Positions 2 to 30,385 of a stretch of 40,605 bases of DNA are shown piece by piece. Source of the DNA: a bacterium (GTDB lineage Bacteria; Omnitrophota; Gorgyraeia; Gygaellales; UBA12090); contig SCPY01000069.1 of the NCBI GenBank assembly GCA_004299495.1, positions 1 through 40,605 on the forward strand, read 5' to 3'. Both the position numbers and the translations under genes were made by a program. Each line of letters opens with the position of its first letter. The stretch's first letter is position 1. The notes below the pieces were generated by a model, which had not been told where the DNA came from, did no database searches, and worked only from the letters and a program-made list of their open reading frames with translations.

Positions 2-1096
2 GCGGAGCGGGAAGGAAAGCAGACCAAGCTCTTTAGATTAAACAATGCCTCCGCGCTTACGCTTAAAGAGTCTCTCTCCAGGGTATTAGGCCCGGACGGA
101 TCAATTGAGGCGGATGCCCGCTCCAATTCTTTGGTGGTTACGGATACCCTCTCGGTGATCAATAAAATAGAAGAAATAATCCCCTCTCTTGACAATCCCA
201 CCCCGCAGGTTTTAATCGAAACAAAACTTATAGAAACCACCTTAACCCGGTCGGATAAGCTGGGCATAGACTGGACAACCACCCTCAGCGCCACAGGAGC
301 CAAAAGGCCGACCACTCTGCCTTTTTCGCCTAAAGGCGACCGGTCGTGGATGGAAAACGTCTTTCCTCCGGGCCCGGCATCAAGCACGGACTTCCCTACC
401 GGGCATCCCTTTGGCTTTCCTACCGCCGTGAAAGGCGATTTCACGCTGGGCACCCTGGATGCCTCAAGCTTAAAGGCGGTCCTTGACGTGTTAAAAAGCC
501 GCACGAATACGCACCTGATTGCCAATCCGCGCGTGGTGGCACTCAACAACCAAAAGGCGCTTATCCACGTGGGCAAAGATGTCCCTATCCCCATTTATGA
601 AAGAAATGATTCTACCGGCAAGATGGAAATCACCGGCTGGTCAGAGGATGAAAAGGTGGGCGTTCAATTAGAGGTTACTCCCCAAATCAGCCCGGACGGG
701 CATATACGGCTGAAATTAAAACCCGAAGTAAGCAGCATTTCAGATTTTATAAAAATCGAGGGCGAAGACGCCGCTCCTATCACCGCGACCAGAACCGTGG
801 AAACAGAAGTATTGATCAGAGACGGACAAACTGTGGTTATTGGGGGATTAATCAAAGACGAGTCTTTTAACAAAGTAAGCAAGATTCCCATTCTCGGGGA
901 TATTCCTATTTTGGGGCTTCTCTTCACCCGAAAGGAGCTAGGCTCCACTTCAAGCCCGACGGAAAAAACCGACCTGCTCATTTTTGTTACCGCGCGCATA
1001 ATCAAAGACACCGACGAACCGCTCCTGGCGTATGAGAGCAATCTGATTACCTCGGCTCCCCATCCCTTCAAATTAGAGATGAGAGCTGTGCAATAA
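2..1096 (+). CDS. Secretin (PilQ/GspD/MshL family), 5'-truncated by the window edge
   Basis: Frame 2 is open from nt 2 (AEREGKQTKLFRLNNASALTLKESL...RSNSLVVTDT, an N1-type secretin domain) and runs into the ORF listed from 131. Secretin C-domain motifs: VVIGGLIKD, SKIPILGDIPILGLLF, DLLIFVTARII. Confidence 0.85.
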   Translation, partial: AEREGKQTKLFRLNNASALTLKESLSRVLGPDGSIEADARSNSLVVTDTLSVINKIEEIIPSLDNPTPQVLIETKLIETTLTRSDKLGIDWTTTLSATGAKRPTTLPFSPKGDRSWMENVFPPGPASSTDFPTGHPFGFPTAVKGDFTLGTLDASSLKAVLDVLKSRTNTHLIANPRVVALNNQKALIHVGKDVPIPIYERNDSTGKMEITGWSEDEKVGVQLEVTPQISPDGHIRLKLKPEVSSISDFIKIEGEDAAPITATRTVETEVLIRDGQTVVIGGLIKDESFNKVSKIPILGDIPILGLLFTRKELGSTSSPTEKTDLLIFVTARIIKDTDEPLLAYESNLITSAPHPFKLEMRAVQ

Positions 1097-2396: not shown

Positions 2397-3091
2397 GGAA
2401 TAAAGCTTACCTCCCTCTATTTTTTCTGTTCATCATTCACTGCTCACTGCTCACTGTTTGTCGCGCTCAACAGGATGGGGGGATTTCTCAAGAAGAAAAA
2501 GTGCAAAAGGCAAGGGAGCATTACGCCTCCGGAAAGGCCCTTCTTGAACAGGGAGACTACAAGGGCGCGGACGCGCAATTTAAAAAGGCGCAAGGCCTCC
2601 TTACCCAGGGCTCGTCATTACCGGCCCCGGAGGGGCTAGGCCAGCCGGCCGGCAGGCAGGCAATCCCTGCCGAGATCGCTTCGCCGCCCGCGGCTCCCGG
2701 CAATGGCCGCGCATCCGATACCCTTTCTGTTGCCAGGAAAGCCTGGGAAGCCGCCAAAAGAGGCGCGCCCGAGGAAGCTATATCATTTTATCAGCAAGCG
2801 ATTAATACCTGCGCGCCAAACTCCGACCTTTATTACAACCTGGCGCTTGAGTATCTCAAAACCAAGCGCTTCAGGGAAGCTGCCCAGGCTTTTAAGAGAG
2901 CCGTTCAGCTCAATCAGCGGGATAATGACGCCTATTTTAATTTAGCCGTATTGTATGAAAGCTACCTTAACGATAAAAAACAGGCCCTGAGTTATTACTC
3001 CCAATACCTAAAATACGCCTCCCCGGGCGATAATACCGCCGAAACAAAAGAATGGGTGCGCCAGATTAAAAAGGAATTAAAAGCGCGATGA
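2393..3091 (+). CDS. Secreted TPR-repeat protein (PilF/PilW/MshN-like pilus assembly factor)
   Basis: Signal-peptide-like N-terminus. TPR-like repeats (YYNLALEYLKTKRFREAAQAFKRAVQLNQRDNDAYFNLAVLYE). Translationally coupled on both sides. Confidence 0.55.
   Translation: MRNKAYLPLFFLFIIHCSLLTVCRAQQDGGISQEEKVQKAREHYASGKALLEQGDYKGADAQFKKAQGLLTQGSSLPAPEGLGQPAGRQAIPAEIASPPAAPGNGRASDTLSVARKAWEAAKRGAPEEAISFYQQAINTCAPNSDLYYNLALEYLKTKRFREAAQAFKRAVQLNQRDNDAYFNLAVLYESYLNDKKQALSYYSQYLKYASPGDNTAETKEWVRQIKKELKAR
2437..2457 (+). repeat. Heptanucleotide tandem repeat (TCACTGC x2 plus TCACTGT) in the TPR protein signal-peptide coding region
   Basis: Direct reading of 2437-2457. Confidence 0.85.
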
Positions 3092-4905
3092 AAGATGAAG
3101 AACTGCAAAATTTATTATTGAGCTGCGGCCTGCTTACCCCGGAAGAATTAAACAGGGCGGCCGAAGAAACCAAGAAGCTCAAACGCCCCCTGGAAAAGAT
3201 AATTGTGGCAAACCGCCTTTTATCCCAGAGCGCGCTTTACGAAACCGTTGCCAAACATTTAGGGTTTAATTATATCAGCCTGTCAAGCCTTCAGGCAGAC
3301 GAAGCGCTGCTCAAGATATTGCCGGCGGCGCTTGCCCGGCAAACGCTGGCAGTGCCGCTGAAGCTGGAAAACGGCACCCTGCACATCGCGATGGCCGATC
3401 CCGCCGACTTATACGCCATTGACCAGATACAACTGCAGACCGGCATGCCTTTAGAGGTATATCTTTCCGGTCCAGATGAGGTTAATGAAGCGCTCAGCCG
3501 GATTTATGCCGAGCGCGCGGCCTTTGGGGATTTCCTGGCCGGCATCGCCAAAGACCAGCCGCAGGCAAAAACCAAGGACGCGGCAACCGACGGCACGTCT
3601 ATAATTAAGCTCGTGGATTTGATTATCGCCCAGGCGGTAAGAGACCATGCCTCGGATATACACATCGAGCCGGAGCAGGAGGTAACCCGCGTCAGGTTCA
3701 GGATTGACGGCATACTCCACGAAATACCCTCTCCTCCAAAATCGTGGGAAGCGGCGATAATTTCCCGCGTCAAGGTTTTATGCGGTATGGATATCGCGGA
3801 AAATCGCGTTCCCCAGGACGGCCACTTTCAGGCGAAGGTTGACGATAAGATAATTGATTTTCGCGTCTCCACCATCCCCACCATTTACGGGGAAAATCTG
3901 GTAATGAGGATTCTGGACACCGCCTCGGTAATGATCGGCCTTGAGAAATTGGGGTTTGCCACCTACGAGGAAATGAAAAAATACGAGTCTCTTCTTTCCA
4001 AGCCCTACGGGATAATCCTTTCTACCGGCCCCACCGGAAGCGGCAAAACCACCACCCTTTATTCCGCGCTTATGCGGATAAACACTATAGATAGAAACAT
4101 TATCACTATTGAGGACCCGGTAGAATACCGCCTGGGGCTTATCCGCCAGATACAGGTTAATCCTAAGGCGGGAATTACCTTTGCCAGCGGCCTGCGGGCA
4201 ATCCTGCGCCAGGACCCCGACGTGATTATGGTCGGCGAAATCAGAGATCTGGAAACCGCCACCATTGCCATTCAGGCGGCGCTTACCGGGCATTTGGTGT
4301 TTTCTACCTTACACACTAACGACGCCCCTTCCGCGATTACCCGTTTAGTAAATATGGGTATTGAGCCGTTTCTGATTGCCGCCAGCCTTATCGGTGTGAT
4401 GGCCCAGCGGCTGGTAAGAATCATCTGCCCTGCCTGCAAGGAGTCCTATACCCCCTCCAGGGCGCTTTTGGAAAGGTGGGGCCTGAAAGACAGAGGAGAT
4501 ATCCTCTTATACCGCGGCAAGGGCTGCGAGCAGTGCAAAGGCACCGGCTATTGGGGCAGAATGGGCGCGTTTGAGCTGATGGCTATTGACGACGAATTAA
4601 GGGAAATGATTATCGGGGAGGGCTCAACGGTGCTTTTGCGCAAAAAGGCCCAGGAAAAGGGTATGCGCCTTTTGGCCGAAGACGCGGTAGCTAAGGCCCT
4701 AAAAGGCGTTACCACTATTGAAGAAATCGCCAGGGTCTGCGAGGAGCATATAGAGTTAAAACCCGCGGAGCAGGCGAAGGTAGAGCCTTACGCCAAAGGC
4801 GCTGCTGCCGATACAAAGCCACCGGCCCAAAAGGTTGAGGTAAAGTCCTCAGACTTTGAAGAATACCAAAAACGTGTAGCCAGCTGGTTAAGCAGGAAAA
4901 AATAA
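3088..4905 (+). CDS. GspE/PilB/MshE-family secretion ATPase with N-terminal T2SSE_N domain
   Basis: Walker A GPTGSGKTTT; Asp/His boxes (MVGEIRDLETA, TGHLVFSTLHTNDA); tetracysteine CPACK...CEQCKGTGY; N-terminal T2SSE_N-like 140 aa. Confidence 0.9.
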   Translation: MKDEELQNLLLSCGLLTPEELNRAAEETKKLKRPLEKIIVANRLLSQSALYETVAKHLGFNYISLSSLQADEALLKILPAALARQTLAVPLKLENGTLHIAMADPADLYAIDQIQLQTGMPLEVYLSGPDEVNEALSRIYAERAAFGDFLAGIAKDQPQAKTKDAATDGTSIIKLVDLIIAQAVRDHASDIHIEPEQEVTRVRFRIDGILHEIPSPPKSWEAAIISRVKVLCGMDIAENRVPQDGHFQAKVDDKIIDFRVSTIPTIYGENLVMRILDTASVMIGLEKLGFATYEEMKKYESLLSKPYGIILSTGPTGSGKTTTLYSALMRINTIDRNIITIEDPVEYRLGLIRQIQVNPKAGITFASGLRAILRQDPDVIMVGEIRDLETATIAIQAALTGHLVFSTLHTNDAPSAITRLVNMGIEPFLIAASLIGVMAQRLVRIICPACKESYTPSRALLERWGLKDRGDILLYRGKGCEQCKGTGYWGRMGAFELMAIDDELREMIIGEGSTVLLRKKAQEKGMRLLAEDAVAKALKGVTTIEEIARVCEEHIELKPAEQAKVEPYAKGAAADTKPPAQKVEVKSSDFEEYQKRVASWLSRKK

Positions 4906-5783: not shown

Positions 5784-7013
5784 ATGCCTACCTATATTTA
5801 TAAGGCCGCGGACAGCGCGGGAAAACTAGTCAAAGGCGAGATAGAGGCAGGAGGCGAGATAGAAGTCACTACCCATCTGGCAAAATTAGGGTATCTGCCC
5901 ATCAGCATCAGTTTTAAGGCCGAAAAGGCCAAGCCCGCCGCCGGGACAAAGCCTCTGACAGGGCCGGGCAGGGCCCATCCTCAGTCCTTGATTATCTTCA
6001 CCCGCCAGTTTGCCACCATTATCAAGGCGGGCATTCCCATTGTGGAGGGATTAGGAGTTTTAGCCGAGCAAATAGAAGACCCTGTCCTCAAAAACGCGCT
6101 TGCGCAGATTAGCCGCGATGTGGCAGGCGGCATCAGCCTTTCTCAGGCAATGGCAAAGCACCCCCGCGCCTTTAGCGAGCTGTATGTAAACACCGTGGTG
6201 GCCGGAGAAACTGCCGGGGTCCTGGAAAGCGTGCTCTCCAAGCTTTCCTATATGCTGGAAAATGACCACGACACCCGCACCAATATTATGGCGGCGCTGC
6301 GTTATCCGATAATGGTGGTTGTCGCGATGGTAATCGCGGTTATGGTGCTCTCGGTGTTTGTAATCCCTCAATTCGCCAAGATTTACCTGGAGGCCAAGAT
6401 GAAATTGCCTTTGCCTACCCAGGCTATGATTGCCTTCAGTAATACTTTAAGATTTCGCTGGTATATCCTCCTGCCCTCCATTGCCGGCTCATTCCTGCTC
6501 TTCAAATGGTATATCAACAGGCCTAAGGGGCGATTCTGGTGGGACGGGCTGAAATTTAAAATGGTTGTGGTGGGCGAAATCTACACCAAGATTACCATGC
6601 TGCGCTTCTGCTCCATGCTTAATGTGCTTTATCAGGCCGGGCTTCCCGTGCTTAAAACCATGGATATCGTGGGCATGACCATAGGCAACGCCGTATTAAG
6701 CAAAGAGGTGGAAAAGATAAAACGAGACCTTGCCGACGGTAAGGGCATATCGGGGGCGGTACTGGCGAGTAAATTCTTTCCCCGGCTGGTGGGCTTTATG
6801 ATTTCCGTGGGAGAAAAAAGCGGCTCGCTTACCACGATGCTGGATTCCCTCTATGATTACCTGAATTTGGAAGTAAAAACCGCCGTTAAGAATCTCACCA
6901 CCTTGATTGAGCCGATTATGACCGCGGTCCTGGGACTGGTGGTAATGGGAATGTGCCTAGCCATCTTCCTGCCCCTCTGGAGCATGATTGAGGTAATGAA
7001 GGGCGGAGGATAA
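5784..7013 (+). CDS. GspF/PilC/MshG-family inner-membrane platform protein
   Basis: 409 aa. Duplicated T2SSF-type cytoplasmic domains separated by TM helices. Typical N-terminus MPTYIYKA.D..GK...GEIEA. Confidence 0.88.
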   Translation: MPTYIYKAADSAGKLVKGEIEAGGEIEVTTHLAKLGYLPISISFKAEKAKPAAGTKPLTGPGRAHPQSLIIFTRQFATIIKAGIPIVEGLGVLAEQIEDPVLKNALAQISRDVAGGISLSQAMAKHPRAFSELYVNTVVAGETAGVLESVLSKLSYMLENDHDTRTNIMAALRYPIMVVVAMVIAVMVLSVFVIPQFAKIYLEAKMKLPLPTQAMIAFSNTLRFRWYILLPSIAGSFLLFKWYINRPKGRFWWDGLKFKMVVVGEIYTKITMLRFCSMLNVLYQAGLPVLKTMDIVGMTIGNAVLSKEVEKIKRDLADGKGISGAVLASKFFPRLVGFMISVGEKSGSLTTMLDSLYDYLNLEVKTAVKNLTTLIEPIMTAVLGLVVMGMCLAIFLPLWSMIEVMKGGG

Positions 7014-7036: not shown

Positions 7037-7894
7037 ATGACGCCCTGCGCGGGATTAATCGTTGGCCTTATCGCTGTGCTTGCGGCCGGATTTTTTCTGC
7101 TCAAGAAATACTATGAAAAGAAAATCCGGGAAAAAGACAAGCTGGTAAAAGAGGTAGAAGCCCAACTGATCCAGACAGAAAAGATGGCCTCAGTGGGAAC
7201 CCTGGCCGCGGGCATTGCCCATGAGATAAACAACCCCTTAAGTTTTTTGATCAGCAACCTGGACGCCATGGCCAATTATGTGCAGTCCTTAAGCAAAGAG
7301 CCCTCGCTTGACGCGGGCCTGCGCAAAACCCTGCTGGAAGACTTCCGGCCGATGGCAACGGAATCTCTGGAAGGGGCCCTGCGCATAAAGAAAATCGTCT
7401 CGGACCTGCGCACCTTCTCCCGGCGCAGCGAAACCAAGAAGGTTTTATTGGATATCAATCAGATACTGGAATCCACACTTTCAATCGTCTGGAACGAAAT
7501 CAAATATAAGATTACCGTGGTCAAGGACTATCAGGCAAAATCCAGCATCCCGGCCGACCCTACCCAGCTATCCCAGGTGTTGTTGAATATCGTGCTTAAC
7601 GCCTCCCAGGCAATCTCCGATAAAGGCACTATCACGCTCGCCACCTCCGAAGATGAAAAAAATGTCTGTGTCAAAATCTCAGACACCGGAAGCGGCATCC
7701 CCAAGGAGGTATTGCCTAAGATATTTGACCCTTTTTTTTCCACAAAAAAAGCGGGAGCGGGGCTGGGGCTCTCTGTAAGCTATAATATCATAAAGCAGCA
7801 CGCGGGAGACCTCAAGGTGGAAAGCGCGCCCGGACGCGGCACCGTCTTTACCATCACCCTGCCTAAAAAATCCGGGGAAAACAAAACCCAATGA
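7037..7894 (+). CDS. Histidine kinase, single TM helix, no recognisable sensor domain
   Basis: H-box AHEINNPL; N-box LLNIVLNASQA; G1 DTGSGI; G2 GAGLGLS. Only about 7 residues precede the TM helix. Confidence 0.85.
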   Translation: MTPCAGLIVGLIAVLAAGFFLLKKYYEKKIREKDKLVKEVEAQLIQTEKMASVGTLAAGIAHEINNPLSFLISNLDAMANYVQSLSKEPSLDAGLRKTLLEDFRPMATESLEGALRIKKIVSDLRTFSRRSETKKVLLDINQILESTLSIVWNEIKYKITVVKDYQAKSSIPADPTQLSQVLLNIVLNASQAISDKGTITLATSEDEKNVCVKISDTGSGIPKEVLPKIFDPFFSTKKAGAGLGLSVSYNIIKQHAGDLKVESAPGRGTVFTITLPKKSGENKTQ

Positions 7895-7913
7895 TTCATA
7901 AAGGAGAACCGCT

Positions 7914-8300
7914 ATGATTAACTGGGACGAGAAGAGAAAATACAAGAGGGCATTTATTAAACTCGCGGTGGAATACCGGGGAAAAAACTTCTGGCAGATG
8001 GTAGAGGCAAATGATATCTCCGCAGGAGGGATGTTTGTGGCGACCGACAAGGTTGAGCCGGCCCAGACGAAAATAGAGGTCATCTTTGAGCTGGGAAAAG
8101 AGCCTTATAAAAAAACCATCCGCGCCGAAGGCGTGGTGGCCTGGAGCCGGGCGCAGGCCGCTAAAGACGAAAAAGGCGAAGCTGTACCCGCGGGCATGGG
8201 CATTATGTTTACCAAGACCTTTCCTTTTGTGTCAAAAGAGATCTTTGAAAACTTGTTAAAAGAGGCGGAACAGCAAAACAAACCTAAGAGCCAAGACTAA
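7914..8300 (+). CDS. Stand-alone PilZ-domain protein (c-di-GMP receptor type)
   Basis: Canonical RxxxR (RKYKR) and D/NxSxxG (NDISAGG) motifs at the normal spacing; 128 aa. Confidence 0.8.
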   Translation: MINWDEKRKYKRAFIKLAVEYRGKNFWQMVEANDISAGGMFVATDKVEPAQTKIEVIFELGKEPYKKTIRAEGVVAWSRAQAAKDEKGEAVPAGMGIMFTKTFPFVSKEIFENLLKEAEQQNKPKSQD

Positions 8301-8313
8301 GCCGGAGGGAAAG

Positions 8314-8886
8314 GTGTCCAAACATTCTATTCTGATCGTGGATGATGAGGTAAACATCCTGCACAGCTTAAGCCGTGTCTTGCGCGATGATGAGCGGGAA
8401 ATCCATACCGCATCCAGCGCGCCCGAGGCACTGGAAAAACTAAAAACCCTGCGCGCGGTTGATCTGGTTATCTCCGATAACAAGCTCCCCGACATCTCAG
8501 GCATAGATTTTTTAATTAAGGTAAAACAGCTTTATCCCGACAGCTTGCGGATATTGATTACCGGCTATCCCGACCTGGAGTCGGTCATCCGGGCGATAAA
8601 TAACGGCCAGGTATACCGCTTTATCACCAAGCCCTGGGATAACGAAGAATTTAAGCTGATCATAAATCAGGCGCTGGATTATTGCGATGTGCTAAGGGAT
8701 AACCGCGCCCTGATAAAAATTGCCAAAGAGCAGGCGGAGGCGCTTGCCGCGATGCAGAAAAAATATCCCCAGATTCCTAAGAGCGATTTTGATAAAAGCG
8801 GCATCTACATCATTGACGAGCGCAGGGTCTCGGAAACAGTCGCTGATTTCTTAAAAAAATATTATCCCAATACGCCCAAGACATAA
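8314..8886 (+). CDS. Stand-alone response-regulator receiver protein with a short C-terminal extension
   Basis: GTG start with a GGAGGGA RBS. Receiver signature residues: DDE, phospho-acceptor D in LVISD, and ITKPW. Confidence 0.8.
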   Translation: MSKHSILIVDDEVNILHSLSRVLRDDEREIHTASSAPEALEKLKTLRAVDLVISDNKLPDISGIDFLIKVKQLYPDSLRILITGYPDLESVIRAINNGQVYRFITKPWDNEEFKLIINQALDYCDVLRDNRALIKIAKEQAEALAAMQKKYPQIPKSDFDKSGIYIIDERRVSETVADFLKKYYPNTPKT

Positions 8887-8889
8887 ACA

Positions 8890-9726
8890 ATGCCAGATTT
8901 AGACGCGAAACTTGTCCAAGACGGATGGGTAAACCCGTATCAGCTAAGCCTTGCCAGGCAAGAGGCGGACAAATCAGGAAAATCCCTCTGGGCGATACTG
9001 ATAAAGTCCGGATTTATGTCTTTGGAAGACGTCACCGTATTCCTCGCCCAGGAAAGCGGGGTGGCTTATGTGGATACCGCGGATTATTCCCTTAACCCTG
9101 CCGCGGTACGCCTGCTTGATGAAGCTTTTTGCCGCCAAAATCTCGTCATCCCCTTATTTAAAATCAAGGAAACGCTGTTTATTGCCTGCGCCAACCCCCT
9201 GGATACGGAACTGATGGACGCGATAGCTAAAATGGCCGGTTGCGAGGTAACGCCCTTAATCGCCTCATCCGGATCAATTCTAAAGGCATTAAATTCTTTT
9301 TACGGGATTGAAGATAAAGTCTTTGAGTTAGACAGATTTATCACTAAGCAGGACCCGCTGGGAGGCCTTGCCTTCTGGAGGGAATCAGAACGCCTTCCGT
9401 TAAATATCCCGGTCAGCATCAAAATAGAAGACAGCAGCTTTTCCCTTCCGCATGCCGGCACCCTTGACGGCCATACCCGCGACATCTCGCGTAACGGCGC
9501 GGCAATCGGATTAGAGGTATTCATCTTCCTGCCTAAGGGAGTAAGCATTTCTCTGGAGTTCAGGCCGGATAAAAGCCTGACTGCCTCCGGAGAAGGTATT
9601 CGGGTAAAGGGAGAAACGGTATATTGCCGGATGGAAAAAGGCCAGCGCTATTTTCTGGGAGTGCGCTTCACCGACATTTCTGATGGGGCGCGCGACCGCC
9701 TTTTTGGCTTGGCAAAATCAAAATAA
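8890..9726 (+). CDS. T2SSE_N (secretion-ATPase N-terminal domain) fused to a PilZ domain, no ATPase core
   Basis: The N-terminal 140 aa parallels the N-domains of the two ATPases (NLVIPLFKIKETLFIACANPLD...ILKALNSFYG). The C-terminus carries RESER (RxxxR) and RDISRNG (DxSxxG). Confidence 0.7.
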   Translation: MPDLDAKLVQDGWVNPYQLSLARQEADKSGKSLWAILIKSGFMSLEDVTVFLAQESGVAYVDTADYSLNPAAVRLLDEAFCRQNLVIPLFKIKETLFIACANPLDTELMDAIAKMAGCEVTPLIASSGSILKALNSFYGIEDKVFELDRFITKQDPLGGLAFWRESERLPLNIPVSIKIEDSSFSLPHAGTLDGHTRDISRNGAAIGLEVFIFLPKGVSISLEFRPDKSLTASGEGIRVKGETVYCRMEKGQRYFLGVRFTDISDGARDRLFGLAKSK

Positions 9727-9743: not shown

Positions 9744-9771
9744 TTGACAGAGGCAATGCCTGTGGTATACT
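9744..9771 (+). promoter_or_regulatory. Sigma70-type promoter for the riboswitch leader
   Basis: TTGACA (9744-9749), 16-nt spacer, TATACT (9766-9771). Confidence 0.6.
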
Positions 9772-9958: not shown

Positions 9959-10014
9959 GTGCCCCTGTACAATTTATGAACGTGCGGTTCGCGCAATGGA
10001 TAAAGGAGAAAACG

Positions 10015-11448
10015 ATGAAAAGGCAAAATTATCTTCAAAAGAGGAGATGTCCCGTTCTTATCGCTATGTTCATGTTCTCCGCGGTTATTGCCTGTGGCGC
10101 CGAAGAATCCATCACCGTAACCACCTATTATCCCTCTCCTTATGGGGTGTATAGCGAGATGCGCCTGTATCCCAAGAATAACCCTACTGCCTGCGATAAC
10201 AACCAGAGGGGGCTGATGTATTATGACCTTGCCGATAACAGGCTTAAGGTCTGTAATGGAACGCCTCCTTATCAAGACATCGGAGGAGGCTTCTGGGCAG
10301 CCAGCCCCTCAGGCCTTAATGATATCTACTATATTAATTCCGGAAACGTCGGCATCGGGACAAATAGCCCCGGGCAAAAACTGGTAGTTCAGGCCGCGGA
10401 TGCCTCATCTTCAACAGGAACCGGCCCAACGATATATCTTCAGTCAGATGCTGCTGCGACATTGAATAGGGGCGGTTCGGTGCTTTTCGGCGATACCGGA
10501 ACAGCCAGGGCAATGATAAAAGGGGCTTACGAAGGCGCGGGGAGTTCCGGATATTTGGCTCTCTCCACCAAAACATCCGCGAATGTGATGACAGAGGCTC
10601 TTAGGATTGACAGCGGCGGCAATATCGGCATCGGGACGCCGGGCCCGACCTCAAGGCTTCATGTGAATGGTAAGTCAAGGTTTAATGATCGGGTGGGAAT
10701 ATATTTTGGCCCGGACGATATTCCACCTGGGTGGGGAGGCGGCTTGGTGACCTGGGATGTTGTGGCCAAGGCCCAAATTAGAGCTAACTCGCTCTGTTTA
10801 GGCGGAAGCGTAGGCGGAAACGATTTAGGCACCTGCCGCAACAGTTGGCCAGGAGCAGCAAATGTCCTCACAAGCACCAATGGCCAGTATGCTCTGACTA
10901 TGCAGGATGATGGTAACGTTGTTCTCTACACGCCGTGGGGAGCTCGGTTTACAACAGGTACCTATAGCGGGAAATATGGGCCCTACTATCTCATGAGCGG
11001 CAACGGCAGGTATTATTTCGTTATGCAGGATGATGCCAATCTGGTGATTTATGATAACTGGACAGGGCAGCCGATATGGGCCACGAGTTGGAGCCCTGAT
11101 GGAGACTGGAGGCCATGGTTGTCAGATGCCAGGCTAAAGAAAGATGTTGCTCTTCTGGAAGGCGCATTGGCGAAGGTGATGCGGCTACGCGGAGTTGCGT
11201 TTTCCTGGAAGGATACTACGCATGGCGAAGGCCCGCAAGTCGGGTTGATCGCGCAAGAGGTGGAAAAGATTTTTCCAGAAGCAGTAACCACCGGAGGCGA
11301 CGGCTTCAAGCGCGTAGACTATGGACGGCTCGTTTCGCCCCTCATTGAGGCGATTAAGTCGCAGCAGATTGAGATTAAAAAGCAGGGAGAATCCATTCAA
11401 CAACTGCAAGAGGAGCTTAATAAGCTAAAATCAGAAAGCAAGATTTGA
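10015..11448 (+). CDS. Secreted (possibly lipoprotein) fibre protein: tail-fibre-like repeats, bulb-type lectin domain, C-terminal S74 intramolecular chaperone
   Basis: ATG at 10015 follows an AGGAG RBS. Signal peptide has a lipobox-like VIAC. Repeats GNVGIGTNSPGQKLVV and GGNIGIGTPGPTSRLHVNG. Two QxDxNxVxY motifs (QDDGNVVLY, QDDANLVIY). The tail SDARLKKDV...GLIAQEVEKIFPEAV...VDYGRLVSPLIEAIK is typical of Peptidase_S74. Confidence 0.75.
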   Translation: MKRQNYLQKRRCPVLIAMFMFSAVIACGAEESITVTTYYPSPYGVYSEMRLYPKNNPTACDNNQRGLMYYDLADNRLKVCNGTPPYQDIGGGFWAASPSGLNDIYYINSGNVGIGTNSPGQKLVVQAADASSSTGTGPTIYLQSDAAATLNRGGSVLFGDTGTARAMIKGAYEGAGSSGYLALSTKTSANVMTEALRIDSGGNIGIGTPGPTSRLHVNGKSRFNDRVGIYFGPDDIPPGWGGGLVTWDVVAKAQIRANSLCLGGSVGGNDLGTCRNSWPGAANVLTSTNGQYALTMQDDGNVVLYTPWGARFTTGTYSGKYGPYYLMSGNGRYYFVMQDDANLVIYDNWTGQPIWATSWSPDGDWRPWLSDARLKKDVALLEGALAKVMRLRGVAFSWKDTTHGEGPQVGLIAQEVEKIFPEAVTTGGDGFKRVDYGRLVSPLIEAIKSQQIEIKKQGESIQQLQEELNKLKSESKI

Positions 11449-12822: not shown

Positions 12823-13692
12823 ATGGCGATGAGATATTTAATTTTTACGGTTGTGATGTTTTTGGCTGCGGGCAATTTTATTTTTGCTCAAGAGGAATTG
12901 CAAGATTCCACGCCGTCAACGGGCAATGTAACTGCCGCGCCGGAAAATCCGCAAGTGCCGATGCCGGACGCTACCATTGAGCCGGAACCGATGATGGAAA
13001 TAAAACAGTTGGGCGCGGATAAACCGCTTTACGCTTTTGAATTAAGAGACGTGGAAATCGGAGACCTGCTTAGGGTCCTTGCTCACGATTATAAATTAAA
13101 CCTGCTGGTGGATAAAGATGTGTCGGGAAGGATTACCGCGAGCCTGAGCGCCATTTCCCTGGAAGAGGCCTTAGAGACTATCGCGGAGTCTCAAAACTTG
13201 AGCCTCAAAAAGAAAGGAAATGTCATTCGCGTAATCCCTAACATTATCACAAAAGTTTTTAAGCTTAAGTTTGTAGAGGCAAGGGAATTGCTGGAATCAT
13301 CCTCATCTTCAGAAGACGCATCTTCGGATGCTTCTGCCGCGTCTTCGGAAAGTGCCGCGGAAACAACTACAACCTCCGCAACCGCCGAAGATGAATCGGC
13401 GTCGTCCTCCGAAGAAGATTCCGCATCCGCGCAAGAGGCGAACACCATCTATGACCTGCTCTCCGATAAAGGTAAAATCCTGCTGGGTAAGCAACCCAAT
13501 TCCCTGGTGGTGATAGATTATCCGCCATACGTGGAGAAGATAGAGGCCTACATTAAAGAAGTTGACCAAAAGATGGCAAGCAAAGTCTTTAAGCTAAAAT
13601 ACCTTAGGGCCGCGGATGTGGTTGGGCAAAGCAATGCCGCTTCCGCGACAGATGCATCGGCCGGCACCAACACCACAACTACCGGCTCATAA
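12823..13692 (+). CDS. Secreted secretin N-terminal module protein: N0/STN-like domain, one N1 domain with an acidic Ser-rich insert, and the first strand-helix of a second N1 domain
   Basis: Signal peptide. FELRDVEIGDLLRVLAHDYKLNLLVDKDVSGRITASL..ISLEEALETIAESQNLSLKKKGNVIRVIP (N0-like). KVFKLKFVEARELL...NSLVVIDYPPYVEKIEAYIKEVD (N1). Ends KVFKLKYLRAADVV plus a low-complexity tail. No secretin C-domain. Confidence 0.7.
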   Translation: MAMRYLIFTVVMFLAAGNFIFAQEELQDSTPSTGNVTAAPENPQVPMPDATIEPEPMMEIKQLGADKPLYAFELRDVEIGDLLRVLAHDYKLNLLVDKDVSGRITASLSAISLEEALETIAESQNLSLKKKGNVIRVIPNIITKVFKLKFVEARELLESSSSSEDASSDASAASSESAAETTTTSATAEDESASSSEEDSASAQEANTIYDLLSDKGKILLGKQPNSLVVIDYPPYVEKIEAYIKEVDQKMASKVFKLKYLRAADVVGQSNAASATDASAGTNTTTTGS

Positions 13693-13693
13693 T

Positions 13694-14980
13694 ATGTTGA
13701 AAAAAATAGCTATAATTTTATGTTTTATGTTCATCGCTTCCCTATCCTCCGCGCAGGAGATAAGCGATAATATCAGAAGCCTTTTGTCCAGCCAGGGAAA
13801 GGTGCTCTATGGCAATGAGCCGAATTCAATTCTGGTGATTGACTATCCGGAAAATATCCAGCGCGTGGAGGAATACTTGGATACCGTGGATATCGCGCCC
13901 CAGCAGGTGCTGATTGAAGCCAGGGTGGTAGAGGTAAAACTGCAAAAGGAGCACGCCCTGGGCGTAAACTGGAAGGCCTTCGCGGACAAGGGCTATATTC
14001 CGATGGGCAGGTTTAAGGGGGGAGCGCTTACCGCCCTGGGAAGCATGCCATCCCCTCCACAGCAAACAATCGCCTATAAGCCCACTTTTTATCCTCCGCT
14101 GCAGTCCGCGACAGGCCAGGAATCTCCCTTTACCTTTTCTATTTTTGACGACAATATCAATATCGTGGTGCAGACGCTGGCAAGCGCCCTGGATACCGAC
14201 ATTCTTTCCGCCCCGAAAGTAACCACGGTAAATAACCGGGAGGCGGAAATCAAAGTCATTCAGCGCCTTCCCTGGGCCGAGCCCACCCTAACCGAATCCA
14301 CCAGCGGCTCATCCACCGCGGTTTCTGTTACCTGGGAAATTAATTATGAAGAGGTGGGTATCAAGCTTAAGGTGACCCCTATTATCAATGATGACGGAAA
14401 AATAAGCCTCGCCCTAATGCCTGAGGTAAGCGAGAAGACCGGAGACCTCACCCTCACCGCCACCCAGAGCGGCACCAGCATTAACTATACCGTGCCCATT
14501 ATTGATACCCGAAACGCGGCCACAAAAGTGGTTATCGGAAACGGCCAGACCCTGATTATCGGAGGCCTGATTAAGGATAAGAGCGCCAAGGGCGCCTCAA
14601 AAGTCCCCCTGTTGGGGGATATCCCTCTCTTGGGTTACCTTTTTAAGAGCATCAAGGACACGCAGGATAAAACCGAATTACTCATCTTTGTTTCGCCGAA
14701 AATCATCACCCCTGACGAGCTGATTTATATGTCGCGGGAGGAAAAAAACCTGGTGGATAAGGGATACCGCAAGGAAAGGCAAAAGCGGCAAGCCGCAACC
14801 CTCAAGCAGCAGGAAACGGCAAAATCAAAGGATGACCGGCTTAACGCAAAGCTTGATACCCTGTTAGATAAACAGGAAGAATTAGCGCGGGCCAGAAAAA
14901 ACCTGGAAGAAAAAATCATTAAAGAAGAAAAAAACCTGGAGCTCCTTGAGGAAGACAAAAAAACCCCGGAGAGAAGATGA
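13694..14980 (+). CDS. Secretin (PilQ/GspD family) with its own signal peptide, a partial N1 domain, a secretin C-domain and a K/E-rich coiled-coil tail
   Basis: The ATG at 13694 gives MLKKIAIILCFMFIASLSSAQE. NSILVIDYPENIQRVEEYLDTVD; QVLIEARVVEV; LIIGGLIKD...KVPLLGDIPLLGYLFK...ELLIFVSPKII. About 90 aa of charged coiled-coil at the C-terminus. Confidence 0.85.
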   Translation: MLKKIAIILCFMFIASLSSAQEISDNIRSLLSSQGKVLYGNEPNSILVIDYPENIQRVEEYLDTVDIAPQQVLIEARVVEVKLQKEHALGVNWKAFADKGYIPMGRFKGGALTALGSMPSPPQQTIAYKPTFYPPLQSATGQESPFTFSIFDDNINIVVQTLASALDTDILSAPKVTTVNNREAEIKVIQRLPWAEPTLTESTSGSSTAVSVTWEINYEEVGIKLKVTPIINDDGKISLALMPEVSEKTGDLTLTATQSGTSINYTVPIIDTRNAATKVVIGNGQTLIIGGLIKDKSAKGASKVPLLGDIPLLGYLFKSIKDTQDKTELLIFVSPKIITPDELIYMSREEKNLVDKGYRKERQKRQAATLKQQETAKSKDDRLNAKLDTLLDKQEELARARKNLEEKIIKEEKNLELLEEDKKTPERR

Positions 14981-15320: not shown

Positions 15321-16997
15321 ATGGCGGAAATCGGTTTTAAAAAAATAGGTGAAATTCTTATAGAGCAGGGATATATCAACCAATCCCAGCTTGCGCAGGC
15401 CCTGGAAGAGCAGAAGCTCACCGGCGAAAAGATAGGTGAGGTTTTAATCAAAAAGGGCTGGTTAAGCCAGGAGGAGCTGGACTTTGCCTTAAGCTCCCAG
15501 AAGGGCATTGCCCGCTTTGACCTTTCCAATTATATTATTGAATCGGCGGTTATCAAGCTGGTGCCGGAGGAGTTCGCGCGCAAGTATATGCTTATCCCGG
15601 TATTTTTAGTGGAGAATACCCTCACGGTGGCGATGTCCGAACCCTCAAACGTCTTTATTATTGACGAGCTGCAGCGCGTCACCAAGCTTATTGTTGAGCC
15701 GGTCCTGGCAGGAGAGCTGGATATCAAAAAGGGCCTTGACCAATATTACGGGGGCTCAGGCACCCTCGCGGAAATTATTTCCGGGTTAGATAAAACCAAG
15801 CTCGCCGAAGGCGAAAAATTAGGAGAAGAGGCGCCCATCATTAAAATCGTGAATTATCTTATTCTGCAGGCGGTGCAGGTAAAGGCCTCGGATATCCACA
15901 TAGAGCCGGAGGAGAAATTTTTGAATGTCCGCTACCGCGTGGACGGGATCCTCCGCCGCCAGCCTCCCCTGCCCAGGGACCTGGCGAGCGCGATTATCTC
16001 GCGTTTTAAAATTATGTCCGGGTTAGATATCTCGGAGAAACGCGTTCCCCAGGACGGCCGCATACTGATGAAATTCGGCGCCAAGGATATTGATTTTCGC
16101 GTCTCTACCTGTCCCACCCTGCACGGGGAGAATGTGGTCTTGAGGATCCTGGACAAAGGCGGCCTGGTGCTGGGCCTTGAGACCCTGGGATTTCCTGAGC
16201 GCGAACTAAAACTGTTCCAGGAGCTGATTCGTTCACCTTACGGCATCATCCTGGTTACCGGGCCTACGGGCAGCGGAAAAACCACCACTCTTTATTCCGC
16301 CTTACAAATACTGAATAAAGAAGATGTAAACATTATGACCGTGGAAGACCCCGTGGAATATCAGTTTCCCGGCATACGCCAGGTGCATGTCAATGTGAAG
16401 GCGGGGCTTACCTTTGCCAGCGCCCTGCGTTCTTTTTTAAGGCAGGACCCGAATATCATTATGCTCGGGGAAATCCGCGACCGAGAAACCGCGGAAATTG
16501 CCGTACAGGCGGCGCTCACCGGCCATCTGGTGCTTTCCACCCTGCATACCAATGATTCGCCCTCTGCGTTTAGCCGGCTTATTGATATGGGGGTTGAGCC
16601 TTTTCTGGTTTCGTCGTCCTTACTGGGGGTGCTTGCCCAGCGATTAATCAGGAAAGTCTGCGAGAAATGTAAGGTGTCGTTTAGCCCTACGGAAGAATCC
16701 TTAAGAAATCTCGGCCTGGAAGACAAAATAGGCAAAGATATCAAATTTGCCAGGGGAGGCGGCTGTAAATTGTGCAACTCAAGCGGATATAAGGGGCGCC
16801 TGGGAATTTATGAGCTCCTTAAGGTTACCCCGGCCATCCAGGAAGTAGTCTTAAAGAGGTCTTCGGCGGATGACATCCGGGCCCTGGCGATAAAAGAAGG
16901 GCTGGCGCCCTTAAGGCAGGGCGCCCTGGAAAAACTTATGTTAGGGCTGACCACCCCTGAGGAGGTGATGCGCGTTACCTTGGAATCCGGCCAGTAA
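15321..16997 (+). CDS. pilB: PilB/GspE-family assembly ATPase with tandem MshEN-type motifs
   Basis: Walker A GPTGSGKTTT; MLGEIRDRETA; TGHLVLSTLHTNDS; tetracysteine CEKCK...CKLCNSSGY. N-terminus has KIGEILIEQGYINQSQLAQALEEQ and KIGEVLIKKGWLSQEELDFALSSQ. Confidence 0.9.
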   Translation: MAEIGFKKIGEILIEQGYINQSQLAQALEEQKLTGEKIGEVLIKKGWLSQEELDFALSSQKGIARFDLSNYIIESAVIKLVPEEFARKYMLIPVFLVENTLTVAMSEPSNVFIIDELQRVTKLIVEPVLAGELDIKKGLDQYYGGSGTLAEIISGLDKTKLAEGEKLGEEAPIIKIVNYLILQAVQVKASDIHIEPEEKFLNVRYRVDGILRRQPPLPRDLASAIISRFKIMSGLDISEKRVPQDGRILMKFGAKDIDFRVSTCPTLHGENVVLRILDKGGLVLGLETLGFPERELKLFQELIRSPYGIILVTGPTGSGKTTTLYSALQILNKEDVNIMTVEDPVEYQFPGIRQVHVNVKAGLTFASALRSFLRQDPNIIMLGEIRDRETAEIAVQAALTGHLVLSTLHTNDSPSAFSRLIDMGVEPFLVSSSLLGVLAQRLIRKVCEKCKVSFSPTEESLRNLGLEDKIGKDIKFARGGGCKLCNSSGYKGRLGIYELLKVTPAIQEVVLKRSSADDIRALAIKEGLAPLRQGALEKLMLGLTTPEEVMRVTLESGQ

Positions 16998-21114: not shown

Positions 21115-22986
21115 ATGTCAACCTTTATAGGTATAGATATCGGCAGCCGCTATACGAAGGTGGTAGAGTTGGAGCATAGGCCTCAGGCCAAAGGGCTGCT
21201 GAATTGTTTTCTCTTTGCCACGCCATATTCTGCCCAGCCCCAACCGGGGCCAAGGCAGGTAGACCCGAAGCCTTTCTGGGATGAAATAACCCGCCGCGTT
21301 CCCTGGGAAAGGATAAAATCCGCCCGCGTCGGCGTAAGCCTTCCCGCGAACTCGGTAATGGCAACCACCCTGCTGGTTCCCCGGGTGGCTAAAAATGAAT
21401 TGCCTGTTGTGGCGCAAAACGAGGCAAGAAGAAAAATGATCCCCGCGTCAACGCCCGAGCATATCTTTGAAAGCTCGCTTGTGGGCGTGCGCATCGTAGC
21501 CAAGATCCCCCGCTTTGAGGTCCTGGTAATACGCTCGGAAAAACATTATGTCCGCCGGGTTTTAGAGCTTTTTAAACATGCCGGCACAAGCCCTTCGTCA
21601 ATCGCGCTTGCCCCCTGCGCCCTTTTTACGCTGGCTCCCGAAGAGGTTCTTAAAAAACAGGACGTAGACACCGCGTTTGTGGATATTGGCTTGCAATCCG
21701 TCAATACTTCTATAACCCGGGAAGGAAAGCTGGCATTTTTTAGAAACTCCTCTTATGGCCTCCAGGATATCATTCAGGACCTGTCCTTACGCCTGGGAAG
21801 GGCGGAGCCGGAGGTTGAGGAGATCATTAAAGAAATGGGGATCGTTGAGGTTGATTTTGATTTAAAAGACAAGGTGGCGGTTGCCGAAGAAATAATGCGC
21901 CAGAAGTATGAGGCGAGCCTAAAAAACCAAGGCGCTTCCCAGAAAGAGGAAATTAATCTTTTGGAGCTGCGCCTCCTCTGGCAGGCGCATATTGACCGGA
22001 TTGTTCACGAATTGCGGCGTTCCTTGAGCTATTACAAAGAACAGTCCGAAGGCCGCCGGGTAGAATATATCTACTTTTTGGGCGGCGGATGCCAGATAAA
22101 GAACCTGGTGAGCCTCTTAATGAAACAGGTGGGCGGCCAGGGAGAATCCATGCTCCCCCTTAAAGGCCTCAATCCGCCCCAGGGCAGCCCTGCCCAAGAC
22201 GCCAATTCCACCCCCATATTCAGCAACGCCTGCGCCCTCGCGCTTGGGCTTTCCCTTAAAGATAAGGGGGCCGCTATCATTAACTTTCTCCCTTGGGAGC
22301 TCAAAAAAAAAGAGGCGCTTGCCGCCAGGCGCCTGATTATCCTGTCGGTAAAATTTATTCTGGTTTTTCTCTTCAGCGCGACTTCCCTGGCGGCCTTTAT
22401 CAATAACCGCTCGGTAAGGTCCGCGATAAAAAAAGTGGACAGCGGCCTTGCTGAAGTCAAAAGCATTGCCGATGCCCTGAAAAACTTAAACCAGCGCGAT
22501 AAAAAAGTTAAGCTGGAATCAAGCCTGATTCAGCTCCTGATAGACGGACGCCCTGACCTTGGCGCGGTGCTTACGCGACTGGTAAAAGCTGTCCCGCAAG
22601 AAGTTTTACTGACGAGCGTCGTTATTGCTAAAGCCGGGCCTTCGGCCTATGCCGAGGCGCCGGAGGCAGCCGGCATCACGGAAGACGCCGAAGCAGGCGC
22701 CGAGGGCCCCGAGGCTTCCGGCGGTCAGGCGCCCCAGGAGGCATACGCGGCTATGAGCGCGCTAAGCGTGGAAATAAAAGCGGAGGTCTTCGCCGACTAC
22801 GAAACCGCGCTGGCCGTTGTCGCGCGGGTGCGCGAGAACTTAGAGGGCCCTCCCGCTCAGTTTAGAAATGTGCGGGCATCTTCCCTGGAGTTAGAGAAAA
22901 TTTCTCCCCTGTCTGCGGACAAAGCACTTCCCCTGACTCTGCCGATGAAAAGAAGCTTTACCGTCACCGCGGAGATCGCGCGATGA
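21115..22986 (+). CDS. PilM-PilN fusion protein with an acidic Ala/Glu/Gly-rich insertion in the PilN-like periplasmic part
   Basis: Actin-like ATPase start FIGIDIGSRYTKVVEL and YIYFLGGGCQIKNL. Then INFLPWELKKKE plus a TM helix (PilN signature). Then a low-complexity stretch AEAPEAAGITEDAEAGAEGPEASGGQAPQE. Confidence 0.7.
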   Translation: MSTFIGIDIGSRYTKVVELEHRPQAKGLLNCFLFATPYSAQPQPGPRQVDPKPFWDEITRRVPWERIKSARVGVSLPANSVMATTLLVPRVAKNELPVVAQNEARRKMIPASTPEHIFESSLVGVRIVAKIPRFEVLVIRSEKHYVRRVLELFKHAGTSPSSIALAPCALFTLAPEEVLKKQDVDTAFVDIGLQSVNTSITREGKLAFFRNSSYGLQDIIQDLSLRLGRAEPEVEEIIKEMGIVEVDFDLKDKVAVAEEIMRQKYEASLKNQGASQKEEINLLELRLLWQAHIDRIVHELRRSLSYYKEQSEGRRVEYIYFLGGGCQIKNLVSLLMKQVGGQGESMLPLKGLNPPQGSPAQDANSTPIFSNACALALGLSLKDKGAAIINFLPWELKKKEALAARRLIILSVKFILVFLFSATSLAAFINNRSVRSAIKKVDSGLAEVKSIADALKNLNQRDKKVKLESSLIQLLIDGRPDLGAVLTRLVKAVPQEVLLTSVVIAKAGPSAYAEAPEAAGITEDAEAGAEGPEASGGQAPQEAYAAMSALSVEIKAEVFADYETALAVVARVRENLEGPPAQFRNVRASSLELEKISPLSADKALPLTLPMKRSFTVTAEIAR

Positions 22987-25075: not shown

Positions 25076-25089
25076 ATCCACAGGTTATT

Positions 25090-25235
25090 CAACTTTTCAT
25101 TAAAGCTTGGCTGGTTAAAAATAAGCGTAATACCTGTAATATATTTAAACTTTCAACAGAAATAAAAACCCCTACTACTAATACTATTTAAGATACTTAT
25201 AAAAATAATTAATAGTAGTAAAATAAAAGGGAAAA
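25090..25235. other. AT-rich dnaA-dnaN intergenic region, candidate DNA unwinding element / part of oriC
   Basis: Visibly AT-rich (runs such as AAATAAAAACCCCTACTACTAATACTATTTAAGATACTTATAAAAATAATTAATAG). Only degenerate DnaA-box-like sites are present (GAATCCACA at the dnaA stop). Confidence 0.35.
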
Positions 25236-26324: not shown

Positions 26325-26330
26325 ATTAAT

Positions 26331-30373
<4,043 letters not shown>

Positions 30374-30385
30374 AGATGAGGATAA

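Follow-up and report, generated by a model that had tools for sequence, protein, structure and literature searches.

The 40,605-bp contig SCPY01000069.1 (GenBank assembly GCA_004299495.1, from a bacterium of the phylum Omnitrophota), analysed here over its full length and referred to as the window, carries two gene sets for type IV pilus-like machines and between them, at positions 7037-9726, a block of four short genes, which code for a histidine kinase (HK), a stand-alone PilZ protein, a receiver (REC) protein and a fusion protein in which an MshEN domain is followed by a PilZ domain (Table 1). All four open reading frames (ORFs) lie on the plus strand where an earlier note, made from the sequence alone, had placed them, and the strings it quoted as motifs for binding of cyclic di-GMP (c-di-GMP), namely RESER, RDISRNG, RKYKR and NDISAGG, are all present in the translations. 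The intergenic gaps within the block measure 19, 13 and 3 bp, the HK gene starts 23 bp past the preceding platform gene, and the start codon of the fusion follows 3 nt past the REC stop codon. On the 5’ side the block is flanked by genes for a secretin, a coiled-coil protein, a TPR protein, ATPase1 (MshEN+T2SSE), an AAA_22 protein and a T2SSF platform protein, and on the 3’ side by a second secretin, ATPase2 (MshEN+T2SSE), pseudopilins, T2SSF, a PilM fusion and PilO, so that both pilus machines named in the earlier note were recovered with Pfam. The remainder of the window consists of dnaA-dnaN-gyrB-gyrA and housekeeping genes, and a domain scan of the plus-strand ORFs of at least 110 aa in the window gave no GGDEF, EAL or HD-GYP domain, as had been stated before.

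Table 1 Coordinates of the genes, protein segments and sites of the window that are discussed in the text.
Feature	Position in window	Strand	Details
ATPase1, MshE/PilB/GspE-type, upstream MSHA-like machine	3088..4905	+	605 aa; PF00437 454.6 bits, PF05157 77.8 bits
ATPase1 conserved C-terminal peptide			EYQKRVASWLSRKK
Platform protein, T2SSF/MshG-like, upstream machine	5784..7013	+	PF00482 196 bits
HK gene	7037-7894	+	285 aa
Stand-alone PilZ gene	7914-8300	+	128 aa
Receiver (REC) gene	8314-8886	+	190 aa
MshEN-PilZ fusion gene	8890-9726	+	278 aa; last gene of operon
MshEN (N1D-like) module of the fusion, residues 1-153	8890..9348	+	four-helix ND0, then alpha/beta ND1
Flexible interdomain linker of the fusion, residues 154-163	9349..9378	+	low pLDDT
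PilZ beta-barrel and C-terminal helix of the fusion, residues 164-272	9379..9705	+
Sigma-70-like promoter: TTGACA, 16 nt spacer, TATACT, TG before second hexamer	9744..9771	+	11/12 consensus positions
ATPase2, downstream pilus/T2SS-like machine	15321..16997	+	558 aa

In Pfam searches the fusion matched PF05157 (MshEN; T2SSE_N/GSPII fold) with 71.9 bits over residues 57-142 (gathering cutoff 23.1) and PF07238 (PilZ) with 46.7 bits over residues 164-272 (gathering cutoff 22.5), while no match to PF00437 (T2SSE) was obtained and the chain ends at residue 278 after the PilZ helix. The description of the protein as a T2SSE_N domain joined to PilZ and devoid of an ATPase core is therefore correct. 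TIGR02538 aligns to the fusion at profile positions 2-141 of 564 only, and as the N2 and C-terminal ATPase domains are missing, the protein does not belong to the secretion ATPases. An AlphaFold2 model built on a 72-sequence alignment reached a mean predicted local distance difference test score (pLDDT) of 89.8 and a predicted template modelling score (pTM) of 0.69. Confidence falls in the linker (mean pLDDT of 60 at residues 151-160 and 70 at residues 161-170, below 50 at residues 158-161), and this low-confidence stretch ends immediately before R164; in the modelled PilZ half the barrel strands lie between residues 168 and 262, followed by a helix at residues 265-276. Foldseek matched the N-terminal half to MshE with bound c-di-GMP (5HTL, target TM-score 0.80), to the PilB N-domain of Xanthomonas citri (7LKM) and to the GSPII domains of Thermus PilF, and the C-terminal half to PilZ domains, ligand-bound structures among them, namely those of MotI (5VX6), YcgR (5Y6G), VCA0042 (2RDE), BcsA (4P00) and Alg44. 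A profile of the fusion searched against the PDB likewise matched the N-domains of PilB, MshE and PilF (E = 2.4e-22).

The two halves differ in the state of their c-di-GMP motifs, which we followed in a census of 98 aligned family sequences. In the PilZ half of the window protein the RxxxR motif reads R164-ESE-R168 (9379-9393), directly 3’ of the linker, and the second motif reads D198-I-S200-RN-G203 (9481-9498); RxxxR is kept in 98/98 family members and the full [D/N]xSxxG in 89/98, the deepest members included. These motifs had been called intact, and the census agrees, so that in sequence and in predicted fold this half is a canonical (type I) PilZ receptor. In the MshEN half the helix spacing and the hydrophobic positions are retained, but the ligand-contacting positions are systematically replaced. 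The window protein starts motif I with D3-L-D5 and motif II with S32-L-W34, where R-h-G is needed, and has A or E at position 24. Across the 98 sequences position 1 is never Arg (D/N/E/S/G/T in motif I, S/T/P/N in motif II), the Gly of position 3 is replaced by Glu in 82 and kept in one sequence in motif I, by Trp in 88 and kept in none in motif II, and the Gln of position 24 has mostly become Ala in motif I and Glu in motif II. With NF053729, the NCBIfam profile for the MshE-type c-di-GMP motif (cutoff 38), the window fusion scored 23.4, two others 14.0 and 19.0, and a fourth gave no match. The reported degeneracy of the MshEN motifs thus extends to the whole family, which falls outside the MshEN-type c-di-GMP receptors sensu Wang et al. 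2016. We read the replacements as inactivating because they agree with mutational data on the Thermus PilF GSPII-A domain, in which Ser at motif-II position 1 abolishes binding and Gly3Ala weakens it about 10-fold (PMC12002112); XpsE has lost binding via G11V and other changes (PMC5013675). Accordingly, it is well supported by sequence that the MshEN half would be unable to bind c-di-GMP and that the PilZ half would act as the sensor, a division of labour that the earlier note had proposed.

Clustering at 90% identity divides the family into approximately 100 clusters. Among 5.8 billion proteins searched with a word index, 74 clusters were recovered, 70 of them 272-298 aa in length and four shorter fragments; both Pfam domains are present in all but three of the 74, and the sole taxon names among them are Candidatus Omnitrophota/Omnitrophica. 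An exhaustive search with a profile, run on 1.84 billion 50%-identity representatives, gave 16,847 matches, and the best 150 of these contain about 30 full-length relatives (269-297 aa), nearly all of the others being MshEN alone, with a few short fragments of the C-terminal half; unrelated MshEN+PilZ fusions may exist beyond these best 150 matches. In a scan of one genome per species the family was found in 19 out of 185,579 genomes, of which 15 are labelled Omnitrophota/Omnitrophica and four are metagenome-assembled genomes (MAGs) labelled Planctomycetales or Planctomycetia. Members of the 98-sequence set go down to about 25% identity, and the N-domain residues Y60, Y66, P88, F90, N102 and P103 are invariant or nearly so in the family. 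An extension towards the deep clade, with searches started from one of its members (P0114) alone or from a five-sequence profile, brought no new members; one protein that combines MshEN with an HD-GYP-type domain (P0231) surfaced in the searches. The fusion is thus a real, conserved and lineage-restricted protein in these searches.

The surroundings of the fusion were compared in 29 non-redundant loci, the window included, and fall into three arrangements. In group A (19 loci including the window) the order is T2SSF, HK, sometimes a small ORF with two transmembrane (TM) segments, PilZ, REC and fusion. In group B (8 loci), which carries no kinase, PilZ or receiver gene and whose fusions show 37-44% identity (six loci scored by tblastn), the T2SSF gene is followed by the fusion, sometimes with the small two-TM ORF between them, and a pilin gene is often next. 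The two deepest loci form group C, in which genes for a HAMP-PAS histidine kinase and a sigma-54 response regulator come after the fusion, with one or two pilin genes behind them. In groups A and B the upstream sequence reaches far enough in 25 loci; all 25 have the same MSHA-like operon there, and its T2SSF platform gene is the constant 5’ neighbour either of the fusion alone or of the whole HK-PilZ-REC-fusion block. Where the start of this operon is visible, the secretin gene is preceded by genes for a PilM-PilN fusion, PilO and a T2SSB-like protein. On the 3’ side the neighbour varies: several loci have the second machine there, four have dnaA, one has recA, and others have pilin, TPR or REC-GGDEF genes. 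From this constant 5’ operon and the variable 3’ neighbours it follows that the fusion belongs to the operon of the first machine. The position between two pilus machines, on which the earlier note had laid weight, is hence incidental, and the idea that the block coordinates both adjacent machines by virtue of its position was dropped, since the downstream neighbour varies. Nor are the four genes an obligatory unit: the trio ahead of the fusion is absent from the eight group-B loci and group C stands beside pilS/pilR-like genes, so that the four-gene signalling block is a subclade-specific elaboration.

Three further observations were made in these loci. The small ORF of 67-72 aa with two hydrophobic segments is conserved in 11 non-redundant loci and lies in the HK/PilZ interval in group A and in the T2SSF/fusion interval in group B (L001 8812-9018, L002 8812-9030, L030 8758-8961 and L031 8500-8709, with further tblastn matches in L015, L019-L022, L026 and L027); tblastn did not find it in the window, where the gap between HK and PilZ is 19 bp. 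The two group-C loci, L028 4413-9092 (P0114) and L029 3273-7869 (P0111), come from Omnitrophota MAGs and have a pilS/pilR/pilA-like arrangement, which hints that the fusion family arose in a type IVa pilus (T4aP) gene cluster. A REC-GGDEF gene is found a few kb 3’ of the fusion, beside large TPR proteins, in L002 (13473-14429, minus strand) and L030 (14451-15410, minus strand); it is a candidate local source of c-di-GMP, and the window is without one. Judging by these REC-GGDEF genes near the locus and by the intact motifs of ATPase2, c-di-GMP signalling exists in these organisms.

The most informative part of the context, which the earlier note did not mention, is the contrast between ATPase1, which lacks c-di-GMP motifs, and ATPase2, in which they are perfect. 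ATPase1 scores 27.7 with NF053729 and its orthologs 28.4-35.8, all under the cutoff. Gly3 is missing from both MshEN motifs in all 17 full-length ATPase1 orthologs as well as in L030 and L031, with Q/E/K at this position in motif I and E in motif II, and position 1 is never Arg. ATPase2 scores 66.8 and its orthologs 61.7 and 67.3, above the cutoff; both of its motifs have 11/11 relaxed positions with the canonical 5-residue spacer, and 21-22 out of 22 motif positions are kept in its orthologs in 6 loci. Taken together, the motif loss in ATPase1 and the operon synteny mean that the machine whose ATPase is unable to sense c-di-GMP in the canonical way is always the one with the fusion.

ATPase1 further differs from ATPase2 in a C-terminal extension of about 55 aa (residues ~552-605, window 4741-4902), which ATPase2 lacks. 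It consists of a variable Pro/Ala/Lys-rich spacer followed by a terminal peptide, (S/T)(D/E)(F/I/L)xEYQKR(V/I)AxWLSRKK, and is also present in L001, L002, L006-L009, L011-L016, L022, L024, L025, L027, L030 and L031. Either the TPR protein, whose gene lies directly upstream, or the fusion could dock on this peptide.

The reading that we favour, with a probability of roughly 55%, is that the fusion is a c-di-GMP-responsive accessory pilus subunit, which supplies in trans the c-di-GMP control that ATPase1 lacks. The linker-bound ligand of YcgR, MotI and PlzD re-orients the N-terminal domain and thereby creates a motor-binding surface. By analogy with these proteins, the fusion would serve an Omnitrophota type IV pilus system as a dedicated accessory subunit. 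Its PilZ half would bind c-di-GMP through RxxxR at the interdomain linker and D/NxSxxG on the barrel, and the ligand at the linker may re-orient the N-terminal domain against the barrel. The MshEN half, which appears to have kept the ATPase N1 fold and lost the c-di-GMP pocket, would then be the output and would dock, in a c-di-GMP-dependent manner, at a site built for the N1 domain of the ATPase, so as to gate pilus extension; candidate docking sites are the PilM-PilN protein or ATPase1 itself. Control of the first machine would be supplied in trans because ATPase1 has lost its own MshEN motifs, and ATPase2 would sense c-di-GMP in cis. In the subclade of the window, the HK, the RpfG-type receiver and the second PilZ protein inserted ahead of the fusion may contribute a further input, by phosphorylation, and an additional c-di-GMP receptor. 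Of all this, the architecture, the predicted fold, the state of the motifs, the conservation of the family, its place in the operon and the contrast between the two ATPases are observed, whereas we infer c-di-GMP binding, the closure of the two domains, the docking partner and the sign of regulation. An output role at the N1 site is proposed because N1 domains are known to contact GspL/EpsL/PilM-type proteins and, in Xanthomonas, PilZ (PMC8389850, PMC11656802), and a precedent for a PilZ protein in contact with an ATPase N1 domain is given by the crystal structure of PilB(12-163) with PilZ from X. citri (PMC8389850).

Several of our own results weigh against this proposal. The NF053729 scores of ATPase1-type proteins go up to 35.8, not far under the cutoff of 38, and ATPase1 might still bind c-di-GMP weakly in a non-canonical way. 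The N-domain of the fusion scores 54-89 bits with the ATPase2/PilB type and 20-58 bits with the ATPase1 type; being nearer to the former, it gives no specific pointer to the partners of ATPase1, and the model, with a pTM of only 0.69, does not provide a reliable interdomain geometry. Erosion of the second PilZ motif, with A, I or Y in place of G, is seen in six of the eight group-B loci, so the core role may not need c-di-GMP in every lineage; ATPase1 has not regained its motifs where the PilZ half of the fusion is eroded, since group-B ATPase1 proteins keep 15-17 of 22 positions and are as degenerate as the others. Lastly, the two deepest members of the family, those of group C, are not in a motor operon and stand beside pilS/pilR-like genes.

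The closer similarity of the N-domain to the ATPase2/PilB type is also one of the points that speak for a competitive decoy, which we consider possible, if rather unlikely. Here the free MshEN domain would occupy the PilM/GspL-type docking site of N1 and block the motor, and c-di-GMP bound to PilZ would expose or sequester MshEN; this is the inhibitory form of the hypothesis put forward in the earlier note and differs from the accessory-subunit proposal in sign and partner only. The N-domain retains the ND1 core that binds GspL/EpsL in ATPases of type II secretion systems (T2SSs), and both machines have PilM-fusion proteins. Inhibitors of pilus assembly of the PlzR type do exist (PMC11461919). 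However, for a gene with a fixed place at the end of a tightly packed operon it is more parsimonious to code for a subunit than for an inhibitor of that operon, and the target would be ambiguous, as synteny points to machine 1 and sequence similarity to the ATPase of machine 2.

Synteny of another kind, the neighbouring kinase and response regulator genes in the 19 group-A loci and, as a different PilS/PilR-like pair, in both group-C loci, is what a regulator of two-component signalling would explain, together with the 3-nt gap between REC and fusion and the need of a sensor-less kinase for an input. In that case the fusion would bind the adjacent kinase or receiver and tune phosphotransfer by c-di-GMP, with pilin or pilus gene expression as the output. 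We judge this unlikely, given that in eight loci the fusion comes directly after the platform gene with no kinase or receiver adjacent, and that the receiver has no DNA-binding domain. We know of no precedent for an MshEN fold that binds a kinase, which likewise counts against it.

A bolder version of the docking idea, which we put forward as a speculation and hold to be distinctly doubtful, is that the fusion is a ligand-switched, free-standing copy of N1 that chooses which motor engages the platform, so that, in a nanobacterium that depends on a host, a single messenger reciprocally gates two type IV filament machines of the same cell. The fusion would occupy or bridge the PilM-PilN site at one c-di-GMP level, such that the sensor-blind ATPase1 can or cannot engage, and ATPase2 would respond in cis. 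If true, this would be a natural separation of the docking function of N1 from the motor, a function that is still poorly understood for PilB-type ATPases.

The erosion of the second PilZ motif in six of the eight group-B loci, in which the protein is still full-length and in place, would suit a structural or chaperone subunit that stabilises or localises ATPase1 independently of c-di-GMP, its PilZ motifs being ancestral and not required. PilZ proteins that do not bind the ligand are established as cofactors of PilB in Pseudomonas and Xanthomonas (PMC8389850, PMC11461919). Nevertheless, the conservation of RxxxR in 98/98 members down to about 25% identity, and of D/NxSxxG in 89/98, can hardly be accounted for unless ligand binding is under selection in most lineages, which makes such a role improbable. 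A degenerate remnant of a full-length ATPase gene, to which nothing but the presence of an ATPase-type N-domain points, has next to no probability and was ruled out together with a pseudogene or a mis-called ORF, a test set out in the earlier note, since 72 aligned full-length homologs are 272-298 aa long with both domains (269-297 aa in the set of ~98 sequences), the N-domain is only ~19-34% identical to that of either neighbouring ATPase, no T2SSE-like sequence lies 3’ of the gene and the model is confident.

The accessory-subunit proposal can be set beside several known systems. The MshE-type ATPases, such as V. cholerae MshE, M. xanthus PilB, C. perfringens PilB2 and Thermus PilF, share with the fusion the N-terminal fold, the pilus/MSHA-like operon and the presumed c-di-GMP signal; in the fusion, however, the pocket is destroyed, no ATPase core is present and the ligand site appears to have moved to the appended PilZ domain, whereas ATPase2 is a straightforward member of this class. 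In the PilB-PilZ-FimX complex of X. citri (7LKM, 7LKN, 7LKO) an ATPase N-domain without motifs receives its c-di-GMP input in trans via a PilZ-fold protein that touches its MshEN-like ND0/ND1 region (PMC8389850), and the fusion covalently joins the two folds that meet there. It differs from the X. citri system in that its MshEN domain is on a polypeptide separate from the ATPase, and in that it has canonical PilZ motifs and no FimX-like protein nearby, while in X. citri the PilZ protein is without binding motifs and the EAL domain of FimX is the sensor. As both motifs are present, the fusion does not belong to the Xanthomonas/Pseudomonas-type PilZ proteins. With YcgR, MotI (DgrA) and PlzD (VCA0042) it has in common a C-terminal PilZ barrel and RxxxR in the interdomain linker, but its N-terminal domain is MshEN and not PilZN/YcgR_N (no PilZN family was reported by Pfam, which sets it apart from the PilZN-PilZ effectors), and its target would be a type IV pilus/T2SS-like machine and not the flagellar stator or rotor.

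Outside secretion ATPases, MshEN was described by Wang et al. 2016 with REC, HD-GYP, CheA, CheX, a cyclase, a Ser/Thr kinase and a glycosyltransferase (NfrB GT-MshEN) as partners, and as the stand-alone protein PA3740 (PMC5013675). The fusion resembles these architectures in using MshEN as a portable module; in them MshEN is the c-di-GMP sensor, whereas in the fusion it is predicted to be ligand-blind and is paired with a second, different receptor domain. PilZ is not among the partner domains listed in that study, and in its supplement ‘PilZ’ appears solely as a heading over columns in a table of counts (PMC5013675). PlzR of P. aeruginosa, which acts with PilZ and PilB, is similar as a small accessory protein linked to c-di-GMP that modulates an extension ATPase via a cofactor of the N1 domain, but its c-di-GMP link is reported to be through its promoter, it has no MshEN module and it is not in a pilus operon (PMC11461919). 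In the literature searched, an MshEN-PilZ architecture was found neither described nor named, and nothing specific on pili or c-di-GMP in Omnitrophota was found, a ComFB paper naming the phylum only for an unrelated ComFB-CheR fusion.

The fusion is thus a lineage-restricted, uncharacterised addition to the known control of type IV filament motors by c-di-GMP via PilZ-type adaptors, which will not be conceptually surprising to the field, and its practical value is modest without biochemistry. Its interest lies in a natural dissection, in that an N1 domain without a motor and with its own pocket disabled is wired to the well-understood PilZ switch, in an operon whose ATPase is without a pocket too. 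The paralogous machine next door keeps the pocket, which yields testable predictions about c-di-GMP control in trans versus in cis. Pili are believed to play a part in attachment between cells in Omnitrophota, and the fusion offers a first handle on pilus regulation in this uncultivated phylum. How the N1 (MshEN/GSPII) domain is coupled to the platform, and how c-di-GMP affects motor output, is an acknowledged gap, the domain being flexible and missing from most structures (PMC11656802).

Concerning the three genes ahead of the fusion, the HK matches PF00512 (36.5 bits) and PF02518 (98.2 bits), both above the Pfam gathering cutoffs, and consists of a TM helix at about residues 5-23, a coiled coil, the phospho-acceptor His62 (in AHEINNPL) and N, D, F and G boxes, which like the H-box are conserved in 18 orthologs. 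Pfam reported no PAS, GAF or HAMP domain in the HK or its orthologs, and orthologs with a cleanly called start have a single N-terminal hydrophobic helix and essentially no extracytoplasmic residues, in line with the kinase having been called sensor-less. NF038348 (T2SS_HK, 574 positions including sensor regions), the best NCBIfam match of the HK, scores 248 bits on it, far below its cutoff of 450, and its best-scoring stretch is the kinase core only (profile positions 399-573), so the HK does not belong to this subfamily. The stand-alone PilZ protein matches PF07238 with 31.4 bits, above the gathering cutoff, and carries R8-KYK-R12 and D34-I-S36-AG-G39; all of its 19 orthologs share the first Arg and the DxSxGG core, and at least 80% of them have the second Arg.

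The receiver matches PF00072 with 74.8 bits, above the gathering cutoff, and keeps D10, D11, D55, T83 and K106. Searched against the PDB, it matched best to REC domains taken from the REC-HD proteins 3HV2 and 2RJN, and NF053512 aligns over profile positions 1-143 of 422 only; the likeness to RpfG-type REC-HD-GYP proteins thus covers REC and linker, and with neither HD nor HD-GYP present the receiver is not one of them. It had been described as having no output domain, and indeed no known domain follows REC, but 19 orthologs share a conserved tail of about 70 aa at the C-terminus, so that the statement should read ‘no known output domain’. A sequence search gave no PDB match past about residue 170 and Pfam nothing credible for the tail, which may itself be the output. 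The best equivalog matches are AtoS and ZraS for the HK and include AtoC and NtrC for the receiver, compatible with a cognate pair.

As regards the boundaries of the operon, the promoter match, which has an extended -10 element, is located in the 249-bp gap 3’ of the fusion and marks a likely operon boundary; it is suggestive only, as sites of this kind are in total no more numerous in the region than expected from shuffling. At the other end, the first secretin ORF (window 131-1096) codes for 321 aa compared with 463-508 aa in orthologs and is not preceded by PilM or PilO genes, which indicates that the contig starts within the MSHA-like operon. The first gene 3’ of the fusion (window 9976-11448) has its own strong promoter-like site. 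Its 490-aa product begins with a hydrophobic stretch that resembles a signal peptide and ends in a Peptidase_S74 domain (64.3 bits), an intramolecular chaperone of the tailspike/endosialidase type, which is unusual near pilus genes.

In the second machine the secretin is split into two ORFs (window 12823-13692 and 13616-14980) with a 77-nt overlap, an STN/Secretin_N part of ~290-305 aa and a Secretin part of ~430-454 aa; the split recurs in relatives (L001 13772-14689 and 14691-15983) and therefore looks genuine and not like a frameshift error. The PilM fusion of this machine (window 21115-22986, 623 aa) matches NF045709 (Amuc_1101 family, PilM-like) with 47.9 bits, the cutoff being 650. Following the second machine, the dnaA-dnaN-gyrB-gyrA genes (window 23747-32818) place the window at the chromosomal replication origin region. 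The G+C fraction is 0.38 in the bin 25001-26000, which is mostly dnaN, compared with about 0.50 elsewhere. The gyrB gene (window 26624-30373) codes for a 1249-aa product with an intein, Intein_splicing covering residues 444-868 and the interruption lying just before Toprim, and in L004 gyrB is in pieces with a weak intein match.

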